64,000 nt of DNA from Massalongia carnosa (Eukaryota). Shown here piece by piece: positions 2,982-17,158 of this stretch (position 1 is the stretch's first letter; each line of letters opens with the position of its first letter). The position numbers and the translations under genes were made by a program. Where the stretch lies: assembly GCA_965645245.1 (NCBI GenBank), contig OZ287083.1, forward strand, positions 992,001-1,056,000, read 5' to 3'. The notes under the pieces were generated by a model. The model was not told the origin of the DNA. It saw only the letters and a program-made list of their open reading frames with translations, and searched no databases.

Positions 2982-5900
2982 ATGAGCACTCTCACCCCAA
3001 AAAGTCGCTTCTATCCAAGTCGTGGTGCTAGAAGATCCTCTCAAGAAGACCTTGGCGTCCACCTTGGCTTGAAAACGGTAATTGGGACTACGACCTCCAC
3101 GCCCAATGCTTTCGATTACCTTCCTGAGAACAATGTGTTTGCAGTCTGTGCCGGCTCAGCGGTTATCGTGGGTCAGGTAGATGCGGATACCAACGTTAAA
3201 CAACGTCTCTTTCGTGCTAGACCAAATGCACGACCAGTCAACGAAATATCTTCTTATTACAACGCCTCTACGCCGCCTGCCACAGTATCAAGAAGCCGAT
3301 TGGCTTCGTCTCTGAGAGACGGCGGCTACGGGGGAGGTTACGCTGTGGAAGACATTGCTACAGAATCCCCCAGCGCGAATCAATTAAGTAAACGTACCAG
3401 AGAGACAACCTGTATCTCATTAAGCGCTCAGGGAAATCTCTTGGCCGTAGGCGAGGTGAGCTCGTTGAGATCGAACTCGTGGTCCGCCAATCTCTAGCTC
3501 ACATATCAAGAGAGGGAAAACTCCTCGAGTACTTATATTTTCTACTGCTGCTGATGCTTCGTCGGAATTTCCTCTCTCTATTTTAACCGACCACAGTTTC
3601 GGCGTTCGTTCGGTCGCGTTCTCCCCCGATTCGCGCTGGCTATGTTCGCTGGGCGACCTACACGACGGGTTCCTCTATTTGTGGGCTGTTCACGAGAAGA
3701 GCGGTGCTGGCAAGCTGCAAGCAAGCAATAAATGCCAAAATGCTCATGATATTGCTTGGGTTGGGCGCCATCTCGTAAGCTTTGGAACTCGCCATGTAAA
3801 GGTATGGAGTCTTGAAGAGATCCCCCCTGCTTCGCCGTCGAAGACGCGCTACGAATACGACAGCCTGGTTGAGAAGAAAAATAACTGCGTTGGACCAAAA
3901 ACCTTCTGTGGTAGAAACTGCCTACTAGGTCCTCTAATAGACGCTGTCTTTACCTGCCTAGTATCTATATCTGATTCCAAAGCGATTTTATGTACTGATC
4001 AAGGTGATGTATGTTTGCTGCGACTTGATCAGGTTGGTCGGACTCAGCGCCTTCATAGAGTTGCAAAAGTTGATTTCAGCGTGACTTGCGTTACGGTAGA
4101 GAAAAGCGACCAGCTCGTATGGGTCGCTGGGAAGAACTACAAGATTGAGGCATTGGCGTTATGTGATCTGGATCGTGCTGTGGTTCCTTCGAGTTCCCCT
4201 CGATCTTTCACAGCCTCTGCTCCACGATGCAGCATGATTCAGGAGATGGAGCAAGGTATTTTGGCCATCGGTATGGTGCTGGGCCGGATTGTCACCATCG
4301 ATTCCGCTCACATCATTGAAATAAAGGATATCGAAAAGAGTGGTGATGCCGGTACAAACATCGGTAAAATGACTCGGCTGCCTGCTCATAGTAGTCCTGT
4401 TCTTGGAGTCACAATACTTCAGCGACCTAATGCTCATGAATCTGATTTTCTCACCTGGTCTACCAATGGTACTGTCTTTTTTTGGACATTAGAAGGTGCA
4501 TGTCAGGATGAGATAAATGTTGAACTAGACCCCCCATCCCACCAAAATGATCAAGAAAGCAACGAATTGAGAGTCTTCCGGGCCGCCGATTGCAATGACT
4601 TTTTCGTATCGGGGGACAAGGAAGGTTTTTTGAGGTATGTTCAAAACACTCCGGCGGAGCATATTGCTCATTCATTATTCCAGGCTCATCAACCACCGAG
4701 GGGATAATGTTTTTACCATAAAAGCTCATAACGGCGACGTTAACGACGTTGCAATAAATAGAGGACGCCTTGATGGTGTTCTCGTAGTGTCTTGCGGCAG
4801 AGACAGGACCTTACAACTTTTCCAGAGCACTAGCGAGAAGCTAATTCTTCTTCAAACTATTCTAGATCATGTTGCTTCTGTGAACAATGTTGTGTTTTCG
4901 AACGAGTCAACACTACTCTCCGCCTCCTCGGATCGAACAATCTGCGTACGGACTTTAGCGGTTGGAACGGATCAATCGTACGCTCTTGTAGTAACGCGAA
5001 TTATAGCCCTTAAGGCAAGTCCCATTACTCTCGCAGTCGTGCCCAACCATTCAGATATAGTAGTCATCTCAACCATGGACAGACAAATTCATAAGTATGA
5101 TATTATCTCTGGGCGCTCTATACATGCTTTCAAAGCTTCAGACACTCCAGGAGGGGACTCTGTAATCCTGGGCTCTCTCTCAGCGCAAAATGTTGGTGGC
5201 GGCAGCGCTGGTGATCCAAATACTTGCGTGCTTCTAGGAGTGTCTTCATCGGACAGGTCAATCAGAATATATGACTATGACACCGGCTTGATGCTTGCCA
5301 AGGAGCACGGACAAACAGTGGTTAGTAGCATCGGTTTCGCTCAACGAACCAGTGAAAGCGGCTGTGCTACCAATAGTGTTGTCAGCACTGGTTTGGATGG
5401 CACGGTGATGATATGGGATCTGGCCATACGATCACAGCAATTGAATGGATCCTGTGAGATTTCAACCCGAACTCAAAATATAGATCCTTTGGCGTCACCT
5501 ATATCGATCCAGCCACTCCGACGGATTCTATCTAAAGCCGAACTCTCGGGTTTCCAGCATTCATTAGAGAGGGCAGGAGACTCTATTAGTCCAACAAAAA
5601 GCCGGTCTCCATCACGGCTTCACAAGAAAACATCCCGGTATAATATGGTCAACACACCCAAAGTCGCCGTCCAACCCCGAGCTACGCACAAAGCCCTCCG
5701 CCCTTCATTAGCAGCGAGTTCTGATCACAGACAAGCGCCACAAGATCGATCACCTACTCCACCGAGCCCAAAAATGACAATAATCACAAATACCAGGCGC
5801 TCTTCTCTAGATGGGCGTCACCGCGTTAAGAGTACCGGGAATCAGTCCTCTAATCTTAACCTGGCTGCGGAACACATCTGCACCTCGCTGCGGTTGTACC

Positions 5901-6166
5901 GCAAACGACTGAGCTCATCGACAGGAAGCCTTAAGCCGCACACGGCACAAGAACTCGAGCGTGAGCTGAAACTTACCATCCACGCCATAGACGAGCAGAC
6001 GAGACGAAGCCAAGTCGCAAATGGGATGATCACGGGAGATCTACTGGATGAGTATCTTGCTCGCATGATCGACGAGAGGCTTGCCATCAAGGCGAAATCG
6101 GTAGACGCGCAGGACGTGAGCGCTGAAACTAAAATAGCGGACGAAGCCAGTCCTCCCAAAGGATAG
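2982..6166 (+). CDS. WD40-repeat protein, MAPKBP1/WDR62-like, spliced (introns ~3456-3510 and ~4636-4683)
   Basis: LKTVIGTTT N-terminus, LLAVGE, multiple WD repeats (SCGRDRTLQLF, SASSDRTI, STGLDGTVMIWD), S/P-rich tail. Confidence 0.75.
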
Positions 6167-6848
6167 GTACGGCCGAGTAACTTATGCACGAGCTATGGCA
6201 TGCATCCCGTATGCGATTTGTCATTAGGGTTTACTCTCTAGGTGAGAAGGAGCCTTAGGGGAAGGGTTTTGCGATTTTGGGTGAGGATGTATAGGGGTTT
6301 CGATAGGGGGTACTTTGGTGGACGGCGCTTGTACGAGTACTCGTACATAGATGGAACCATCCGAAGAATTGGCACTTATGCTTAAGCAAATGAATCATGA
6401 TCCTCATGGCTTTGTGGGAACAAGGAAGCTGCATGCATTCATACTCGATCTACGTCGTCTTCAACAGTCGGTCTGCCTTTTCCCATGGAGCGCTCAAGGG
6501 GCTATTTTTTCTTTCCAGACCCGGGAATCCGTTTCGTCAAAGATTGCATCTCTCCATCTTTACCTTGTGTCTATATCTCTGCATTAACAATCACCGCTAT
6601 GAAACCAAGTCAAGTGTTCGATTTTGGCCCCCTGAAAGCATGGTATTCACTGCGTCACTAGATAAATACTTCGTATAGCACTAGCCGCCAGGTCTCATGA
6701 ATCCATCCCCTGCCCCCTTCAAAGGTGAGAGTCTAAAGCTAGTATCGTCCTGCCAAATAAATACGAGCGCTGTTTCGAAGCAAAAGACACTAGGGGTTTT
6801 TTGGGGGGGTGGGCAAATCCGCCGCACTATTCTCCGCTCGCTGCCGAA

Positions 6849-9800
6849 TCACCCACCCCACGTCAGCCCTGTGAACTTATGTTGTAGCAGCGCATACAGC
6901 GCGCCTCCATCATCGCTCAGCTGCGCCACGCTCAACGCCTTCTCCGCCCATCGCCGGCACTCGGCGTCTTGGGAGGCACTGTAGAAATCCACCGTCTTAT
7001 TGTACGTTGTCGTAGCGATCCATTCGAGTTCTTCGGCGGGGTATGGCTTGGAGGACTGTTGCATGGAATCAGGATTGCAACTATCAGGGCGGAACGGGGA
7101 AGCACAGTTGGTTTTTGCCAAGGGAGGGAGGGCAGGCATAACCATGATAACGAGATCTACCGACTAACCTTCTTCGCATCTCCCGCGATGGTGACGACCT
7201 GGTCCAGCAAATGCTCCACCATGTCGAATCTGGACGTAAGGGCTAGCGAGAATAAGCAGCGAATCCAACGTGAGAGCTTTTCAATGTCGCTGGCCTCAAG
7301 TCGCCAGGTGGCGTTGATGATTTGCTTCCGTAGCCGTCAATGATGGGAAATTTATACCAAGGCTCGTAACAGGCAAACCCACCTGTAACGTTGCGATGAT
7401 GACTATTCCAGTCAGCATTTAACCAGTTCAATCAAATAGGAAGGAGAGTGCACCGTGGCTTGGCGCAGCAGATGATAATATAATATCAGCTGCAATACTG
7501 TAGATCTTATAATCTCGGCATTCCTGAAAATCCTTCCCCCGTAAGAATTAGCGATATAGGTAGGTTATAATCCTTATCGGGAACTAATTACTTGGATAAG
7601 CTGGTCTAAGCTGTCCCAGGATTCCAGTCCTACTGCAGCCTCCATGTCAAAAGCTAAGAGACACGAGTACTTGCACAGGAGATCAGTCACGGTGCCATCT
7701 TGCTGCCAAGTAAGGTGCTGCGGCAGCTGTGTTCGAAAATCGTCCACATATTTGCGGACATCTCCATAGTGTTGCAGCTAACAACGATTAGCTTCGATAT
7801 AAAAGTACCGCGTAGCAGCGATACGTACTTGAGTTTCTATTTGGCTCTCATTTCGTGCCATTACCACCAATAGTGAGCTACCGAGGAAACTGCAAAACTG
7901 CCTGTGAAGTGAAAGATCTGCGGTAATGTTGGTATCCATATCAGTAGGAAACAGGTCAATGAACTAAAAAAGCGTCAGCCAAGGAGTTTTAGGATAATCC
8001 GAACGATTACCTTGAGACACGCTCGAACCAAACGTAACGTCTGCGGTGGATCCCAATGGGTGCAGACTTTAACAGCGAGATTATAACTTTTCCTAGAGAA
8101 CCAGCTAAGCTCTGCTGAAGGGAATAGCTGAAGCCCTGGGATTCCTGCTGAGCATTGCGCATGGGCAGCAGCTTCCAAAGTCATTTTCTAGAAGCCTATG
8201 CAGATAACCTGACCCACCTGCATCAAAGAGTTGACAGACTTCATTGGCTATGTCTTTGGCCTCGGTATCTTCGTTTTCGATTTCTCGAAGGAGAAGACTA
8301 GCAGTACATCTGATTAAATGAGTAAATTTGGCGTGAGATAGGTATGTTTGGGCATACCGGATAGTCGTTGGGAGATGGACTAAATCTGGAGCTTCCCCAG
8401 CAAAGGTGCTAGGAACCCGTTGTAAAGCCTTAATGGTTAAAATATGTTCCCCTGCCTGTTGGGCCTCCAATACACATGCATAAAGCACTGTGAAGTTTTG
8501 TGGGCAGCCGGAGATGCTGTCAAGGCACTCAATAGCTGATCAATGCTAGCGTTAGGAGAAGCTGGACCCGTAACCCGCAACCCGTACGAGTACTTACCAA
8601 GCTCTTGATTTTTGCTTCTCAATGCTATTTTGTAAAGTAAATACTGGGTCGAGGGATCGCGTTGATTTATTTGGGACATCTGCGTATATATCTCGCGAGC
8701 TTGCACCAGATTTGACATGCCAAGGGCGCAGAGCATCAGTTTTCTAGTTAGGGTGAGACACAAATCATGTCTTAAACAAAAGGTGCGGATATACCTTTGA
8801 AGTTTACCTACATTGAGAATTCCGGAATTGTCAAATATTTCATGCAGCGCGAGACGGCACCACACCTCCGCACGTTCGTAAACCTGCTGGGTGAAACTGG
8901 CTGCTATCCGTTTCCATAAAAGCTGTTTGAAGATTAGCCGAACGAGAGGATACCTTAACCACCTACTTTGTAAAATTGGAGTGAAGCGTACAATGTGTGC
9001 TGCATGGGTTGCAGGAGGGCTTATTGATTTCTGGAGGCCAGTAAACACAGAGTCAAGCACATTGGACAACAAACTTGGCGCCTCCGCGAAATCTGCCGAA
9101 GCTGTACAATTCCAAGTCATGGTGAGGAGGACGTTCTCCAACCAAACCAACTCTTCAGAATCAACTAGTCTTTCCAAGAGAAGAGTCTCAAGGCTCGTAT
9201 GCGCCATAAGTGGATCTTGTTCTCGAAGTTTATATACATGATGTAAGATCGTCTTCAAGTTTGAATCCGTAAGATGTACACTACGGGTAATCTGTTGAAG
9301 TATACCGCAATATTCTTTGGCAGACGACGATGGTTCAAGGGCGTAAAGCTCAAGCTTCAGTAAAAGGACCACCAGTCTTTTTTCAAAACTAACTTCGAGT
9401 TCACCGACGATGTTCCATGCTTTGTTTCTGTTTTCGGGGCCTGGGAGTTTGACGAGCGCCCTTGCCAAAAGATGCATTATGCTGGCCTGAAGTTCTCCAG
9501 CGTCACTACTTCGGACCTCTCGATCTTGACCTGCGAGGACATCGTACGCCTTTTCCAACCACGATACTGCTCCCACAAATGACGATTTCTTCCACTCGCT
9601 ATTACCAATTTCGAACAGTAGGTCCGCTAGAGTCTCGGCAAATGAGTTATCAAGCTCCTTCACTGTTGAACCTAGCTTCGTAAACATCAGCTCTGCGAGG
9701 TCCAGGCGATTTTGTTGCCATGCCTGTCCCTTGTCAATCAACAGTAGCAATAGCTGACAGCACATCGGGGAGTTTGAAGCTTACCAGTGCTATTCGTAAG

Positions 9801-10556
9801 GCTTGGTATTCTTTTGATAAACGCTCTATGGGTACCGCTGATTCATAATCAGTGTAAACGCCTGTTCTTGTAAGCTTTTCTTCGTAGAAAGCCGCCCTTT
9901 CCACCACACGTTCAGCTAAGCTGAGTTGATGCTGATCTAATCCTCATTAACCCCCTAAAGCAAGTAGCAAAAAGCCAACATTGTTACAAACCCAAACAGT
10001 ACTTGGACGCTCTAAGGGTCAATCTCAGAACTCGAACATTATCTAAGGTTGGTGTCAGACATCAAATGCGTATGCACCTTGGCCCGAATCATCTCACTCG
10101 GGTTAGCGTCTTCAGTCCATCGCTGCGCACAATCCAGGAGCAAACATGAAAAGACTCGCACTGTGCTTGTAAGTTAAAGCGATGGAAGAGCAGAGCAACA
10201 GACGATACATAGACAGGTTAGCTCGGAATTTATAGAGCGACCCTTGCCGTGCTTGGAGATTAGATTCCACAACTTGGTTCCTTGGCTGTCCAGTTCACGA
10301 TACTTGCTTGCCGAAGATGTCTTTGAAATCAAAAGGACAGCGTCGACATGTTTGTAAAGATCGGTGGCGAGAGAAGAGGACGGAATGATGTCCGCACTCA
10401 ACCTTTCTTCCAGGTCTTTGGCAAACGCTGTAATGGTCAGCTCGGAGGACGATGGTAGACGATTTCCTTGAGCCGAAGTTATGCCAGAAAGTAAGACTGA
10501 CCAAGTGCGGCGGTAAGTCGATGTTCTTTTTCCACGCGTTTGGTAACAGATCCCAT
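6849..10556 (-). CDS. SPO22: Meiosis-specific TPR protein Spo22/Zip4, multi-exon
   Basis: AWQQNRLDLAELMF...LADLLFEIG...WLEKAYD SPO22 region; C-terminal YPAEELEWIATTTYNKTVDFY...CRRWAEKAL; many GT-AG introns; not every exon traced. Confidence 0.8.
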
Positions 10557-11044
10557 TCCTGCGGCGGCAGTGAAGCCGCGAGAACGGCGAAAACTCGAGC
10601 AATTTCATAGTACTCTCGTATTGTGAGGAACGACCATACGAAACCCTTAGCGGGTAGAGCCTAAATAAAATCAGGCAAGGTACCCAGTACCTCGTACCGT
10701 TTCTGGTACACAATCTGTAAAGTTACCATTCCAGAAAACAGGCGGTTGGAAGGAGACTTTGGGGGCATCAGCAGTACCCCAACTCCATTCAATTAGCTAC
10801 CTCATCTTTGGTACGCAATTAGTTATTTGAGAATCGTGCGATGATAGGTACTTAACAGAGGCCAATGAGGGCCCCAAGCGAGCAAGTCGGAACGGGTACA
10901 GAGGTATTCGTACATCATAGAAATCATCCTACATAACCCTTGATTCAATCAAGCTTGTCATCCGTTTGATACAAAACCAGCCCATCCAAAATGAGACGCC
11001 TGACACCGCTCTTCCATGCTTTTCCAGGAGAAAAATTATCCGAA

Positions 11045-13064
11045 TTACCCCTTGCTTGGTTTCATGGGTAGAAAGTTGCCTACAATAAGGGAAGGACTTG
11101 TACAGTTTTAGAATTATGCAAACGCCCTCGGAATGGATAGACGTACATATTGTGGGTATCTCGTCGAATGGTAAACGAAAAGCAACAACGGATCTCGGGG
11201 TCTGTGGACTTCAGGTCTGGATTCTTCAAAGAACAACTGGTCAATAACGCTTTTTGTGAATTATCAAAGGCAATAGCTTCGAACTTTTCCCAGTAGCTCA
11301 CAAGATGATCTTCTACAATGATCTCGTGGATGGCCAACTTTCCCTGAAACAACATTAATTAGCCAGAGAGACGCTCCCTTGACTTTTCGCCGTTTGACTT
11401 ACGTCTCGAAGATTCTCGATCGGTACGTGAATGAGTTGCGCCATTTCCTTGTTGCCTCGAAAAATCTCTCCTGTTCTCCTCCAACAGCACGCAGGAACTG
11501 CCATGCTAGCAAATACTCGATCGTATTCCATCAAGCTTCTCTCAAACCACATTTCCACAAGCACCAACTCAATATCTGTCAAACTTTGCATTCGTTCCCG
11601 GAATTTGGGCCGGAACCTGTCAAGTTGCCTCAGAATTTTCTGGCGAGAGCTTGGCTGCATATTCTGCTCCATGTAGCGGTTCAATCGCAAGTAGCCCTTG
11701 ACGTAGTTGAAGGGCCGTAGCATTCCCGCATCATACTTGGCTTTTAGTAGTTTGTTCATGCGCTCCTCAGGGGCGTCACTGCCAGATGGGTCCGCTGCGG
11801 TCATGTAGTAGGTCTCCCGAGCTTTATCGATCGGCATGATAATTATAGGTTTCAGGGTATCGCTTCCAGGTGCGAGCAAAGCGGTTGGGGTGCCTTCTTT
11901 CTGGCTAAGCTGCTGAGCCCCAAAATACTGCCTACCGCTGCCGTTTGGAGGTGTGGGGACAGGATTGAGGTTGGGTGGACCAGAGTACAGACTGGGGGGT
12001 TCGTCGCTCGTGAAGGGTGCCGCGTCGTCAAGTAAGCTGGAACTGAGAAAGTCGTTAAGGAGGTTATATTCATTAGTGACCTCTGGTGCGTTGAACATAT
12101 ATGATGGATGAAGGCTGTGCATGTCCTGAAATTGGTTTTGTCCTCCAAGACTCCAGTCGCTGTAACCCAAGACTGGAACCAGGTTAGCAATTTCCAGAAT
12201 CTCCCGTCCCAAGTATCTGGCATGTTACCCACAAGGTTGACTTTTGGTCCCTTGCCCCTTACTTTGAGTTCCAGACGTTGATGGGGAAAGGGCGAGCTGC
12301 GACAAATCTCTTTGACCATTTATAGGTGACGTTGTTGTCGTCACAGTCACTCCTACCTTGTGTATCAATTTAGGCTCCTCTTGTCGTGCTTCGATTGAGG
12401 ATGGGCGGTCGGAGGGCATTTCCTCGGGCTTGAGCGAATCGTCGTTCTCCCTCGCCACCGTATCCTGCTCACCCTTGACAGCCCTCACAGGCTCCCGTGG
12501 TTCATCATGGCATAGGTGGCTAATATTGCGTTTGACGCATCTTGTACATGGGCGTTCCTGTGTATCCATGTGATCCAAAAATCAGTCAAGTGCCACCAAC
12601 CGGGTGCGCAGTCAGGCACCAACCCAATGAGAGGGCTTACCAAGTCGCATGTCATATGCTGTTATTGGCACAGCAACATCTTGGGAATCAGTCCTTCCGT
12701 CCAAGGCCCACTAATGTCAAAAAATGGGAAGACGCCGTGTAGCAAAGGGGGTGCAGAGACGAGAGCATTTGGGGGAAAGCAGCGAGAGGAGCGGTAGCTC
12801 ACCGAACGTCGGCAGTAAATACATGCTGATATATAGATGCGTATGTGTCAGCGCATGATTCGAATGTGAGGAAAAGTCCAAAACCGAAGCATGCCGATCT
12901 ACCCTACCATGATTGACCTTGCGCCGCTTCTTCGGGCTCGTGCTTCTTGTGCTCTCATCCTGCGGACTAACCGCCGGTTGGGCATGCGGGCTTCCATCGA
13001 TTTCCATTACATTACCTGTCCGTTTATCCGGTCCTCCATTCCTTTGGGTAGCTTGATGTTCCAC
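11045..13064 (-). CDS. acuM: Zn(II)2Cys6 transcription factor AcuM/Rds2 (gluconeogenesis regulator) with C-terminal PAS-like region
   Basis: Spliced KKRRKVNHACIYCRRSHMTCDLERPCTRCVKRNISHLCHDEPRE; FNYVKGYLRL; VPACCWRRTGEIFRGNKE; CCFSFTIRRD. Confidence 0.88.
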
Positions 13065-13512
13065 GATTGGAAAACAAGCAGAAAAGACTACTCAATTGAT
13101 TACCGTTTAGAAGCAAGCGACTCACGACATGGTTTGGGGGGATTTTTTTATTTTGGGGAGGGGACACCGGAAAGAAGAGGGGTTGTTGTGCACGCGACGC
13201 TGATATGTTCAGTCGTTAATACGGAGTACTTCATACAAGAATAGGTATCTAACTACTCTATACAGAGTACTCATTCATCATAACGACGGGCAACAGCATA
13301 CAGATTAATGAAGGCAAGGTGAACAAAATAGAAATTGCACGGTTAGTCATTGTTACTGTCTATCGTAGTTCTAGCTGTGTCAACTCCATCCATTTAGATA
13401 TATAGATACCACTCTGAGCGAAACGACAGAGTACGGAGTAGTAGTACGGAGTAATGTAGCGTACTTAGCTCGCCGAGGTACTCCGTATGACTGCACAATA
13501 CGGATACAGAGC

Positions 13513-14839
13513 CACGCGGGTGACAAAATAAATTGCAACGTGTAAGCGAATTTACCCCTGAATGCCCCATCAAAACACCCTCCTTTTTTTCAACTTTTTA
13601 TCTCATCATCAATGTCTCGACCCACAAAGCCTCATTATGATACTCCCACAAAGGCCAAAGTTCAAGGAGCTTATCAATTTCTCATCTCACATGCAATTCC
13701 ATTCGATCCACGGGCCATTTTTCAGGAATTTGGCGTGGCCGAGCGCGCGGGCTATAACATCATCAAAAGCGGAGCTTCTTCTCGCACACGTCACAATTCT
13801 TCTCTCGTTGAGACTCGGGGTCGAAAGCGAAAGATTAGTGATGATCAGCTGAAGGAGGCAGATCACATTCTGCAGGATCAAGATCTACAATTGGAAGGAA
13901 AACGCTACACATGGGATGCTTTAGCACAGGAGATTGGGGCCGACGTGATGGGACGTACAATGAAGAGAACTCTTACAGCTGCCTTGAATTATCACAAATG
14001 TCTAGCCTGTGTCAAAGGGTGGCTGGCAATGGCATCAGAAGAAAGAAGAGAAGAATTTGCTACAGTTATGTTAAATAAATATCCTCGGTCCGAAGACTGG
14101 CATCGCGTACGATTCAGCGATGAGATTCATTTTGGCTACGGGCCTGAAGGACAGTTACGAATCATTCGTAAGCCCGGAACAAGATATCGTTGGGATTGTA
14201 TTCAGCATCGTGATGCACCACCTGAGAAAGATCGTAAAAGAAAGCACTGCTGGGCAGCAGTTGGTTACAATTTCAAGTCGGATATCTACTTCTACGATGT
14301 GCCCAGCAATAGCAATGGAAAAATGACTCATCAGGTGTATATTGACGCTATTCTTGATCCCGTTGTCAAGCCCTGGTTGGAGCGTGGAGATGACTTCGTA
14401 CTTGAAGAAGATGGAGACTCTGGTCATGGCACGGGCAAGACACGAAACGCGGTCAAAAAGTGGAAGTTAGATCACGATTTAGAGCACTATTTCAATTGTG
14501 CTTCATCTCCTGATCTAGCCTCCATTGAAAATTGCTGGCAGCCCGCAAAGCAGCATGTTCGTAAATTTCCTCATTGGGACGATGCAAGTTTGGAGCAGCT
14601 GATTAGGGAGGGATGGGCTCGAGTCAGTCAGGAATTTATCAATGAAAGGGTGTTATCCATGCCCAAAAGATTGAAAGAGGTAAAAGATGCAAAGGGGGCG
14701 ATGACTGGTTATTGATCTCATGTAATTTAGATGAATTTTATCAGCTATGCAGATGATGGTTGATGATGAGATGAAAATTTGAATAAAAAAGGGGGGGTAA
14801 ATTCGCTTACACGTTGCAATTTATTTTGTCACCCGCGTG
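13513..14839 (+). mobile_element. Tc1-like DNA transposon, 1327 bp, perfect 46-bp TIRs, apparent 5-bp TSD AGAGC
   Basis: TIR CACGCGGGTGACAAAATAAATTGCAACGTGTAAGCGAATTTACCCC at 13513-13558 and inverted at 14794-14839; AGAGC at 13508-13512 and 14840-14844. Confidence 0.92.
13612..14715 (+). CDS. IS630/Tc1-type DDE transposase (DD38E), intact, 367 aa
   Basis: GRKRK linker, RFSDE, EEDGDSGH, SPDLASIENCW, C-terminal GAMTGY; 38 residues between second D and E. Confidence 0.92.
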   Translation: MSRPTKPHYDTPTKAKVQGAYQFLISHAIPFDPRAIFQEFGVAERAGYNIIKSGASSRTRHNSSLVETRGRKRKISDDQLKEADHILQDQDLQLEGKRYTWDALAQEIGADVMGRTMKRTLTAALNYHKCLACVKGWLAMASEERREEFATVMLNKYPRSEDWHRVRFSDEIHFGYGPEGQLRIIRKPGTRYRWDCIQHRDAPPEKDRKRKHCWAAVGYNFKSDIYFYDVPSNSNGKMTHQVYIDAILDPVVKPWLERGDDFVLEEDGDSGHGTGKTRNAVKKWKLDHDLEHYFNCASSPDLASIENCWQPAKQHVRKFPHWDDASLEQLIREGWARVSQEFINERVLSMPKRLKEVKDAKGAMTGY

Positions 14840-15085
14840 AGAGCACAGAGTACTCTGTACTCTGTACCGTTGTTAACCTTTTGGGGGCTGGGTACGCCGT
14901 AACGTTTACTAACTAGTTCTCTGTACTCCGTACTCGGTAGCATAGTCCGTAAACTTCCATACGAAGCCCGCTAGCTATCAGATAGATAACGAAGGCTTTC
15001 GCATGCCCTGCGAAAAAAAGTTGAAATAAGATTCCCCACTAAATCTTCAATACACGACTTACTTCTATGATTTGTTTTAAAGGTA

Positions 15086-16958
15086 CGGAGGCGAATCTCA
15101 AAAGTAATGATAATACGCTAAAGACTAGCGCCGTAATTTAGATTTTCCATACCGAGCCTGAAATTCTACCAACTATCTATATATGCCATTACCAACCATC
15201 TAATCAACGTCTTTTTGGTCTGAAACTGGCTGCAGTACGAATAACCTTCTGAATGCGTGGGGGAAGGTGATTTTTCGGAGATAAAACGGCTCTTTTTCTC
15301 AATAAGGGGGGTGTCAATGGCTTCTGTGTAGGGGGCTCAGGGGTAACTGCCCTGACATTCAACGGGCTGGGTGTATCATCCTTTGATTGTCTGGATGATG
15401 GTCTCGTTGACGCCACAGAAGAAGAAGAAGAAGAAGAAGAAGAAGAAGCTGGTTTTGCTGTATTACTGAGCAATTCTTCCCTCAGCTGTTGAAGTCGCAT
15501 TTTTCCTTCTTTGGTCCGTCCATCAACGTCCAAATGTCCTTCGCAATACTCATTTCCACCTTCCAATTCAATGACTTTTGCAATGTGACGTGGAATTCTT
15601 TCAATCCATGCCTGAATATTCTCCTGAGGTAGATCGTCCCAAGTGCGATGCCACATAGATTCAGCAATTAACCGAGAACTAGGAGGACCTTTGGCAGTTG
15701 TACGTCGCTTCATCCAGGGCCAGCAGGGTTCAATCATGTTGAGATCAGGAGAATTTCCGGGCCATAAAAGACGCTCGATGCCATGACGAGAGAAGATGGG
15801 AATCTGATGCTTGGAAGCATGAGACGGAGCCTTATCTTCCTGTACGATCATTTCAGACAATCCGGCTTCTCTTCTTTTTGCATTGCATTGCTGAGCAAAA
15901 GGAATCAGTTTTGGCAGAAGTATGACGTTTTGATACCGCCACCAATCAATGCCTCCTTTACCTTCTTTTCTGATCATCTTTCCATGTTCCTCATCCCATT
16001 TCCATTGCGGCTTTTTTCCTGGTAAATTGCGAGTTGAAAGACGTCTCATTCCATTGGTCAGCTCCCAATTTAATCTCTCACTGGCTTCCAATGCAGCATT
16101 CATCTCGTCAAGCTTGGTTTTGGCTTCCGCTTTTTCCGCTTTTGTCTCCGGTTTCCAGCAATGACATGGCCCCTTCCAATCGTAGGAAAAGCATCCCCAA
16201 AACATGAATTCATGAGCCCCATGCCACCTGGCACGTACGGTGGATTTGACTGGTCTTCTTCCTTCCTTGGTTGTACGCCAAATTTTGACAGCTCCGCGAC
16301 GGTGACCAAGCACTATTGCTGTTTCATCTGACCAAATAACCCGCTTCCAATCCTCCACGGTCCAGTCTTTATACAGGAGACAAAAAGCCAGTCTAGCCGC
16401 TTTCATTTCAGGAGTAAGCCCTGGTCTATACGACGGTTTGACTTTTTTATAGCCTCTTTGTTTTAGGATTCTCCACACGGTGCATCTGGACAGTCCAACT
16501 TCTCTTGCCAACTGGGCACTGGTTTTTTCACGGGCGTATCTGTCTTTTATGACTAGATCAATGACTTCATCTTCTTTCTCAGTAGTAGCCTTTCTCGGTC
16601 GACCAGATTTTTCTTCATGACGGGCGTATTTATCAAGCACCTGCAAAGAAATGGCGGGATCAAATCCTCGATCCCTGGCAATGCGACGAATACGATAAAT
16701 GTTGGGGACAGAATAACCTGTAGTAGCTGCAATAAATTCAATTGAGGCCGGGGTGCAATAAGACAACGTCAAGACCTGAGCCCGCAAAGAAATATCAGCT
16801 GATTTATTGACCATGATGATGATTTGATCAAATGTTGGTTCGTAATGATTTGGGATGAGAAAAGGGGAAAGAAAAGGGGAAAATTTGCTCGGTACGGAAA
16901 ATTTAAATTACGGCACTAGCTTTTAGCGTATTATCATTACTTTTGAGATTCGCCTCTG
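15086..16958 (-). mobile_element. Tc1-like DNA transposon, 1873 bp, 72-bp imperfect TIRs, TA TSD
   Basis: TIRs at 15086-15157 and 16887-16958 with about 6 mismatches; TA at 15084-15085 and 16959-16960. Confidence 0.93.
15204..16814 (-). CDS. Tc1-type DD34E transposase, 536 aa, with catalytic-domain insertion and low-complexity C-terminal tail
   Basis: SGRPRK, WSDET, QEDKAPSH, WPGNSPDLNMIEPCW; 34 residues between D and E. Confidence 0.92.
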   Translation of the reverse strand: MVNKSADISLRAQVLTLSYCTPASIEFIAATTGYSVPNIYRIRRIARDRGFDPAISLQVLDKYARHEEKSGRPRKATTEKEDEVIDLVIKDRYAREKTSAQLAREVGLSRCTVWRILKQRGYKKVKPSYRPGLTPEMKAARLAFCLLYKDWTVEDWKRVIWSDETAIVLGHRRGAVKIWRTTKEGRRPVKSTVRARWHGAHEFMFWGCFSYDWKGPCHCWKPETKAEKAEAKTKLDEMNAALEASERLNWELTNGMRRLSTRNLPGKKPQWKWDEEHGKMIRKEGKGGIDWWRYQNVILLPKLIPFAQQCNAKRREAGLSEMIVQEDKAPSHASKHQIPIFSRHGIERLLWPGNSPDLNMIEPCWPWMKRRTTAKGPPSSRLIAESMWHRTWDDLPQENIQAWIERIPRHIAKVIELEGGNEYCEGHLDVDGRTKEGKMRLQQLREELLSNTAKPASSSSSSSSSSVASTRPSSRQSKDDTPSPLNVRAVTPEPPTQKPLTPPLLRKRAVLSPKNHLPPRIQKVIRTAASFRPKRR

Positions 16959-17158
16959 TACAAAACGAACAATTACTGCTTAGATTCATGATTTAAATTA
17001 GTTGTCTGACTTTAATGATCGTACAGAAAGAATAATTTTGCAATTGTGTTTTGAGGAGTAAATTAATAAAATCCTGATTTTGGTGTGTCAACTTTTTTTC
17101 GCACCACGTGCCCTGCTCCAGGATTCACAAAGTCCATCCTTTGTATAATCCGACAATC

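Follow-up and report, generated by a model that had tools for sequence, protein, structure and literature searches.

In this work, we analysed a 64,000-nt stretch of Massalongia carnosa DNA (contig OZ287083.1, positions 992,001 to 1,056,000, forward strand), hereafter the window, focusing on a small transposon located at window positions 13513-14839. The element is best read as an autonomous cut-and-paste transposon derived from the Tc1 branch of the IS630/Tc1/mariner (ITm) superfamily and belonging to a large Pezizomycotina family, whose target-site duplication (TSD) comprises five GC-rich bases and not TA, and of which the window holds a young copy; we give this reading a probability of about 0.9. 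It draws on an unoccupied allele of the insertion site, on the flanking repeats of independent insertions of relatives, and on the sequence and predicted fold of the transposase.

The element and its unoccupied allele

The element proper spans 1327 bp, and its features within the window are the following:

13508-13512, no strand: left TSD copy AGAGC, read from the sequence; the empty-site contig keeps one copy only
13513-13558, plus strand: left terminal inverted repeat (TIR), 46 nt, starting CACGCGGGTGACAAAA; inverted-repeat search, pattern unique to the two ends
13584-13612, plus strand: left subterminal block, 29 nt, 90% complementary to 14760-14788 and ending at the start codon
13612-14715, plus strand: transposase gene, 367 amino acids (aa), RGRK at residues 69-72; open reading frame (ORF), Pfam, profile and fold
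14119-14121, 14410-14412 and 14527-14529, plus strand: catalytic D170, D267 and E306, respectively
14760-14788, minus strand: right subterminal inverted-repeat block; inverted-repeat search
14794-14839, minus strand: right TIR, 46 nt; inverted-repeat search, unique terminal pattern
14840-14844, no strand: right TSD copy AGAGC; sequence and empty-site contig

The two TIR arms, which start CACGCGGG, are 100% complementary, and a 24-nt terminal pattern was found at both ends of the element and nowhere else in the 64 kb of the window (no match in 100 shuffles). Copies of AGAGC adjoin both TIRs, the host bases that touch them being GC on the left and AG on the right, with TA at neither boundary. 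The transposase gene is the single ORF of the 1.3-kb element and is uninterrupted; a lone transposase gene between TIRs and a size within ~1-2.5 kb are both as in ITm elements. An initial annotation made from the letters alone had described perfect 46-bp TIRs, an uninterrupted transposase and AGAGC abutting both TIRs without TA, and all three descriptions were borne out; its span of 13508-14844 holds as an observation, although it takes in both TSD copies and exceeds the element proper by these.

Four public sequencing runs (X1, X2, X5 and X7) were compared over window positions 12800-15600. In X1, labelled as a lichen metagenome, a contig of 29,059 nt aligns to 12800-13507 and to 14840-15052, with a single mismatch in each part plus one gap in the second; it joins 13507 to 14840 and skips 1332 bp, i.e., the 1327 bp of the element plus five letters that fit either side. 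In this allele the site is unoccupied and AGAGC occurs once, just as the initial annotation had predicted, and because only one copy is present there, the 5-bp duplication at the window site is real. One contig provides this empty-site evidence for the window copy. In X2, a contig of 28,902 nt crosses from the left flank into the first 26 nt of the element, indicating that the insertion is present; X5 and X7 yielded short pieces only over the element, and no bridging contig was found in them. The insertion is thus polymorphic between samples.

The unoccupied allele also bears on where the element ends. TA dinucleotides and short CAGAG and CTCTG words lie near both ends, and short inverted repeats occur in the flanks, all of which would suit a classical TA-duplicating Tc1 element with ends further out (TA-CAGAG at 13505 and CTCTG-TA at 14859) and an indel at its right end, the alternative that the initial annotation had offered. 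However, all sequence up to 13507 and from 14840 onwards is kept in the X1 empty site, so that the outer CAGAG, CTCTG and TA belong to the host; since these words persist in the empty allele, the TA-bounded ends are refuted, and the probability left to this alternative is negligible.

Perfect TIRs, an intact ORF with a conserved catalytic triad, and presence or absence between samples indicate that the window copy is young; judging from the products of insertion, it may still be active, and the earlier suggestion of a young, possibly active fungal Tc1 lineage is supported. In X2, summed contig depth is ~5,200-12,900 over the element vs. 161 on the flank, and in X5 it is likewise far above the flank, depth in both cases not being a copy number; at only a handful of positions does the window copy depart from the dominant letter in X2. 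Recent movement is consistent with this depth and with a protein cluster at 98% identity that includes 43 member sequences. Many near-identical copies appear to be present in the host.

Flanking repeats of related insertions

Metagenome contigs were scanned with the transposase alignment, yielding 80 loci that encode relatives of the transposase (37-64% identity). TIRs were located by blastn between both sides of each ORF, then trimmed inward to the first 5'-C[A/T], and reached at least 40 bits in 41 of 81 sources (the 80 loci plus the window). Excluded were four loci without a C[A/T] terminus (L015, L041, L042 and L072), three without flank (L013, L020 and L045) and five duplicates of the same insertion (L009, L011, L039, L051 and L080), leaving 29 unique insertions; two further pairs recognised through the terminus pattern (L049 and a 79-bp miniature in L012) brought the set to 31, which consists of the window copy and independent insertions of relatives 40-60% identical to it. 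Termini of the type C[A/T]NG followed by ACAAAA are common to the window element and its relatives.

An exact 5-bp flanking repeat was present in 19 of the 31 insertions, every one a different 5-mer and none of them TA-based (e.g., ACCCC, CCTGC, CTACC, GTACG, CCTGG, CCCGG and CTTGG); in five more, the 5-bp repeat was displaced by 1-3 nt from one terminus, and in seven no repeat was found, one of the latter (L077) matching at 4 of 5 positions. Flanks with TA on both sides occurred in 0 of 31, and in the relatives homologous termini recur at the same position within unrelated flanks, which likewise tells against the outer TA-bounded ends considered above. Two loci were spot-checked by direct reading. 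In a tree of 67 transposases built by maximum likelihood, every major branch with flank data contained the 5-bp state; only a four-member outgroup (L058, L067, L069 and L079; 37% identity), on contigs too short to reach both ends, was uninformative. The 5-bp duplication is a family-wide trait, and the empty site together with these counts supports what had been suggested from the window alone, a 5-nt stagger without a TA requirement.

Could the AGAGC pair instead be coincidental, the X1 site being the result of a microhomology-mediated deletion and the duplication having no fixed length? Short ACAGAG and GTACTC repeats are abundant in the flanks, which raises the chance of a short match, and a single copy is what a deletion between direct repeats would leave behind. 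Against this, the 19 exact 5-bp repeats of differing sequence in 31 insertions compare with 3 exact (and 8 displaced) in a null of 930 pairs, formed by the left flank of one locus and the right flank of another. Moreover, exact matches among the 29 insertions peak sharply at 5 bp (18 cases), the counts for 2, 3, 4, 6 and 7 bp being 3, 2, 0, 1 and 1. A coincidental pair is therefore very improbable.

Regarding the target itself, 18 exact duplications average 74% GC vs. 50% in the surrounding 24.6 kb, with C at position 1 in 11, C at position 2 in 11, G at position 4 in 11, and C or G at position 5 in 17. The target is a GC-rich pentamer with a loose CCNGG-like (C-C-N-G-G/C) tendency, which at this sample size we treat as a lead. 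In 14 of the 18 sites, A occupies the third position downstream of the duplication, with no mirror-image signal upstream; this is another lead from the same small sample, pointing to an orientation-dependent target feature that would not be expected of a symmetric dimer.

Several points weigh against our interpretation of a Tc1-derived element that duplicates five bases. Activity and the 5-nt stagger are both inferred from insertion products. Seven of 31 insertions lack a flanking repeat and five have it displaced, cases that we tentatively put down to decay, to recombination between copies or to chimeric assembly of metagenome contigs across repeats. The rule for trimming termini was written post hoc, after the data had been seen; if no trimming is applied, 14 of the 18 exact repeats in the 29-insertion set stay exact, and in the other four the TIR looks longer because the duplication is palindromic and its end bases are complementary. 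The metagenome loci derive from a few record series and represent a limited host diversity, and within the exact subfamily the flank evidence is the window copy, the remainder coming from more distant relatives. Finally, AGAGC, the target at the window site, is a poor fit to the CCNGG tendency.

Some loci deserve separate mention. L014 and L023 first looked TA-flanked and were considered as possible TA-type relatives; the tree places both inside branches whose other members have 5-bp duplications, and the termini of both are ambiguous, because TA may stand there in place of the usual CA/TG. Both were left unclassified and out of the counts. In the displaced cases (L003, L021, L028, L031 and L012), four of five at the transposase-upstream end, the 1-3 extra bases that part the duplication from the terminus might be filler or donor-flank bases carried along. 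Five long loci with full-length intact ORFs (L004, L022, L048, L052 and L078) gave no recognisable TIR pair, a search with the terminus pattern recovering only a left terminus in L004; these may be immobilised or possibly domesticated copies.

Two side observations concern structure within the family. Positions 240-318 of L012, 61 bp upstream of a full-length member, contain a 79-bp miniature whose termini are of the family type (CACGCGG...); two extra bases lie between its 5-bp repeat, CCATG, and the left terminus. In the L035-L080 subfamily, with CAAGCGG termini, the query match is split in two near query residue 122 in many members, suggesting that the transposase gene of this subfamily contains an intron or a frameshift.

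The transposase and its place among known systems

The window protein matches the Pfam family DDE_3 above the family cut-off (E 2.5e-9), as do 34 of 35 aligned relatives, and the NCBIfam IS630 transposase model over positions 16-298 of 299 (E 1.7e-15), below the cut-off of that model. HTH_Tnp_Tc3_2 was found in 20 of the 35 relatives, with no match to the window's own protein at E 0.01. A profile built from the 35 relatives aligned to the catalytic domain of Sleeping Beauty (5cr4) with E 2.6e-19 and to Mos1 with only E 0.33, placing the SDE, DxDxxH and SPDLxxIEN motifs in register with Sleeping Beauty. An AlphaFold model of the transposase (mean predicted local distance difference test score 78.5) has helices at residues 11-52 and 77-125, between which lies RGRK, a candidate GRPR-like motif, and its top Foldseek matches were 5cr4 and Mos1 complexes; the DDE_3-type enzyme with an RNase H-like fold that characterises ITm elements is accordingly present. 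D267 and E306 are invariant among the aligned relatives, and D170 is at least 90% conserved. Judged by sequence and fold, the transposase is Tc1-type by descent, from the Tc1 branch of the ITm superfamily.

The family is large. At E no greater than 1e-30 its profile finds 465 clusters at the 50% identity level, and the named relatives belong to Dothideomycetes, Leotiomycetes, Sordariomycetes, Eurotiomycetes and Orbiliomycetes. A protein search started from a member of the outgroup returned only the names 'Tc1-like transposase DDE domain' or hypothetical, with no described transposon name, and no database relative in the protein searches carried the name impala.

The spacing from the second D to the E is 38 by manual count, the family consensus being 37 (mostly DD37E-like) and the window's subclade having one extra residue; the 34 of the Tc1 family sensu stricto was found neither here nor in relatives (37-55). 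The initial annotation had proposed that the altered target geometry (5-nt stagger, no need for TA) was perhaps linked to four extra residues between D and E, and a tie between duplication length and this spacing was considered and rejected: spacings of 37, 38, 39, 40, 54 and 55 occur in members with exact 5-bp duplications (11 of 18 measurable by motif pattern), and because of this range the duplication is not tied to DD38E.

It could further be argued that the TIRs were mobilised by an unlinked enzyme that produces 5-bp duplications, e.g., Transib-like or integrase-like, the Tc1-like ORF not being the inserter. The 5-bp duplication of the window element, the GC-rich targets of the family and the CAC terminus do resemble Transib elements, which produce 5-bp GC-rich duplications and have termini beginning CAC. 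However, the 1.3-kb element contains only one ORF; relatives down to 40% identity combine this kind of ORF and terminus with a 5-bp duplication; and the conservation of the catalytic triad in 35 relatives argues for selection on transposase function. The transposase itself differs from that of the Transib/RAG group in being Tc1-type and about half the size, and no RAG1-like family matched the window protein or its relatives, only DDE_3 and the Tc3 helix-turn-helix family doing so. Mobilisation by another enzyme is highly unlikely, and the resemblance of a Tc1-derived element to Transib would be convergent.

The closest comparison for the enzyme is with Tc1 and Sleeping Beauty, which are likewise small, with one transposase gene between TIRs, and with which the DDE_3 domain, the catalytic motifs, the fold, a candidate GRPR-like motif and, in the 20 relatives mentioned, the Tc3-type helix-turn-helix are shared; the differences are five GC-rich bases vs. 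TA, and a spacing of 38 (37-55 in relatives) vs. 34. A few elements related to the ITm group, namely ciliate TBE1, nematode Tc4 and Tc5, and Zator, make 3-bp duplications; impala duplicates TA. Impala of Fusarium oxysporum, compared here by description only, resembles the window element in its fungal host, ~1.3-kb length, transposase of ~340-370 aa and the spacing of 37 seen in most window relatives, and differs in the TA duplication that the window element lacks.

A TA target and its duplication are described as common to the whole ITm group (PMC7325037; PMC8533490), impala as a fungal DD37E group within Tc1 (PMC7325037), Sailor (DD82E) as the exception, with a mostly TATA duplication (PMC8533490), and the animal family Intruder (DD38E) as one of those with a TA target (PMC8533490). 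Sailor is, like the window element, an ITm lineage departing from plain TA, but it keeps a TA-containing target, forms a separate superfamily and has an 82-residue spacer, whereas the duplications here are GC-rich relative to background (74% vs. 50%). Intruder shares the spacing of 38, yet it inhabits animals, is sister to DD34E Tc1 and uses TA, whereas the window element is fungal by its named relatives and lacks TA; since the 38 of the window is one extra residue in a family mostly at 37, the match is probably coincidental.

No Tc1-type element with a 5-bp, non-TA, GC-rich duplication was found reported in the open full-text literature, Repbase, Dfam and subscription journals lying outside this scope, and none is reported in the portions covered of PMC7325037, PMC5751038, PMC8533490, PMC11544213 and PMC2851567. 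Mentions of 5-bp duplications in the searched literature concern long terminal repeat (LTR) elements, Transib, Ginger and solo-LTR-like repeats, 5-bp TSDs being mentioned in PMC1131882. The RepeatMasker class 'TcMar-Sagan' appears in the searched literature solely in repeat tables of genome papers. The window element is a Tc1 descendant by its enzyme, yet it neither inserts at TA nor duplicates it, the feature of target choice by which the superfamily is known. We incline, by somewhat better than even odds, to the broader view that a widespread Tc1-descended clade of filamentous ascomycetes has abandoned TA for a 5-nt stagger at GC-rich pentamers of a loosely CCNGG-like kind, and that this clade is apparently undescribed.

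Neighbouring elements, proposed mechanism and implications

The flanks of the element, at 13220-13500 and 14845-14940, are crowded with the short near-palindromic words GTACTCCGTAC and ACAGAGTAC in direct and inverted orientation. About 240 bp downstream lies a second transposon from another Tc1 lineage (15083-16961), with the following features:

15083-15157 and 16887-16961: TIRs, 75 nt, 92%
15204-16814, minus strand: ORF, 536 aa, with WSDET, QEDKAPSH and NSPDLNMIE motifs

This second element is DD34E by manual count, has 22-26% identity to the 367-aa transposase, and is flanked in the classical arrangement, TA-CGGAGG...CCTCTG-TA (TA at 15084-15085 and 16959-16960). Because this TA-flanked DD34E element adjoins the 5-bp element, the same genome region holds both target types. 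High depth over it was also observed in X2 and X5, and an (AAG)n run at ~15421-15448 encodes poly-serine within its ORF.

The DD34E element in turn sits inside a miniature of ~235 bp that is related to the 5-bp family (15009-15024 and 17088-17110) and has a perfect 16-nt inverted repeat (15009-15024 and 17088-17103) and a right terminus whose reverse complement is CACGTGGTGCGAAAAAAAGTTGA. Its left terminal ~9 nt are seemingly missing, while other samples hold copies with an intact terminus (loose end at 15023). Speculatively, CCCTG at 15006-15010 and 17111-17115 could be the 5-bp duplication of this left-truncated miniature.

With respect to mechanism, the putative N-terminal helix-turn-helix part of the 367-aa transposase would bind the ~46-nt TIRs, a paired-end complex would form, and the C-terminal DDE domain would catalyse excision. 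The two 3' ends would then be joined to target phosphates staggered by 5 nt, vs. 2 in other Tc1/mariner elements, and gap repair would duplicate the five target bases, here AGAGC. Such a stagger would imply an altered placement of the target in the transposase dimer.

The TA rule is used to define and recognise ITm elements (PMC7325037; PMC8533490), and both annotation tools and manual curation rely on it; TA-based pipelines would mis-bound or misclassify elements of the 5-bp family. Mechanistically, the family lends itself to comparative study of how stagger and target are determined in a Tc1-type transposase, with an enzyme that is small and close enough to Sleeping Beauty for modelling, and a compact cut-and-paste system preferring GC-rich pentamers would complement TA-restricted vectors. 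If the broader view of an ascomycete clade that has abandoned TA is true, the active-site spacing on the target can be re-set within an ordinary Tc1 scaffold of ~370 aa, and the window holds a candidate active copy of a TA-independent clade. For the host genome, the element is a source of variation that is polymorphic, probably present in multiple copies and possibly active.

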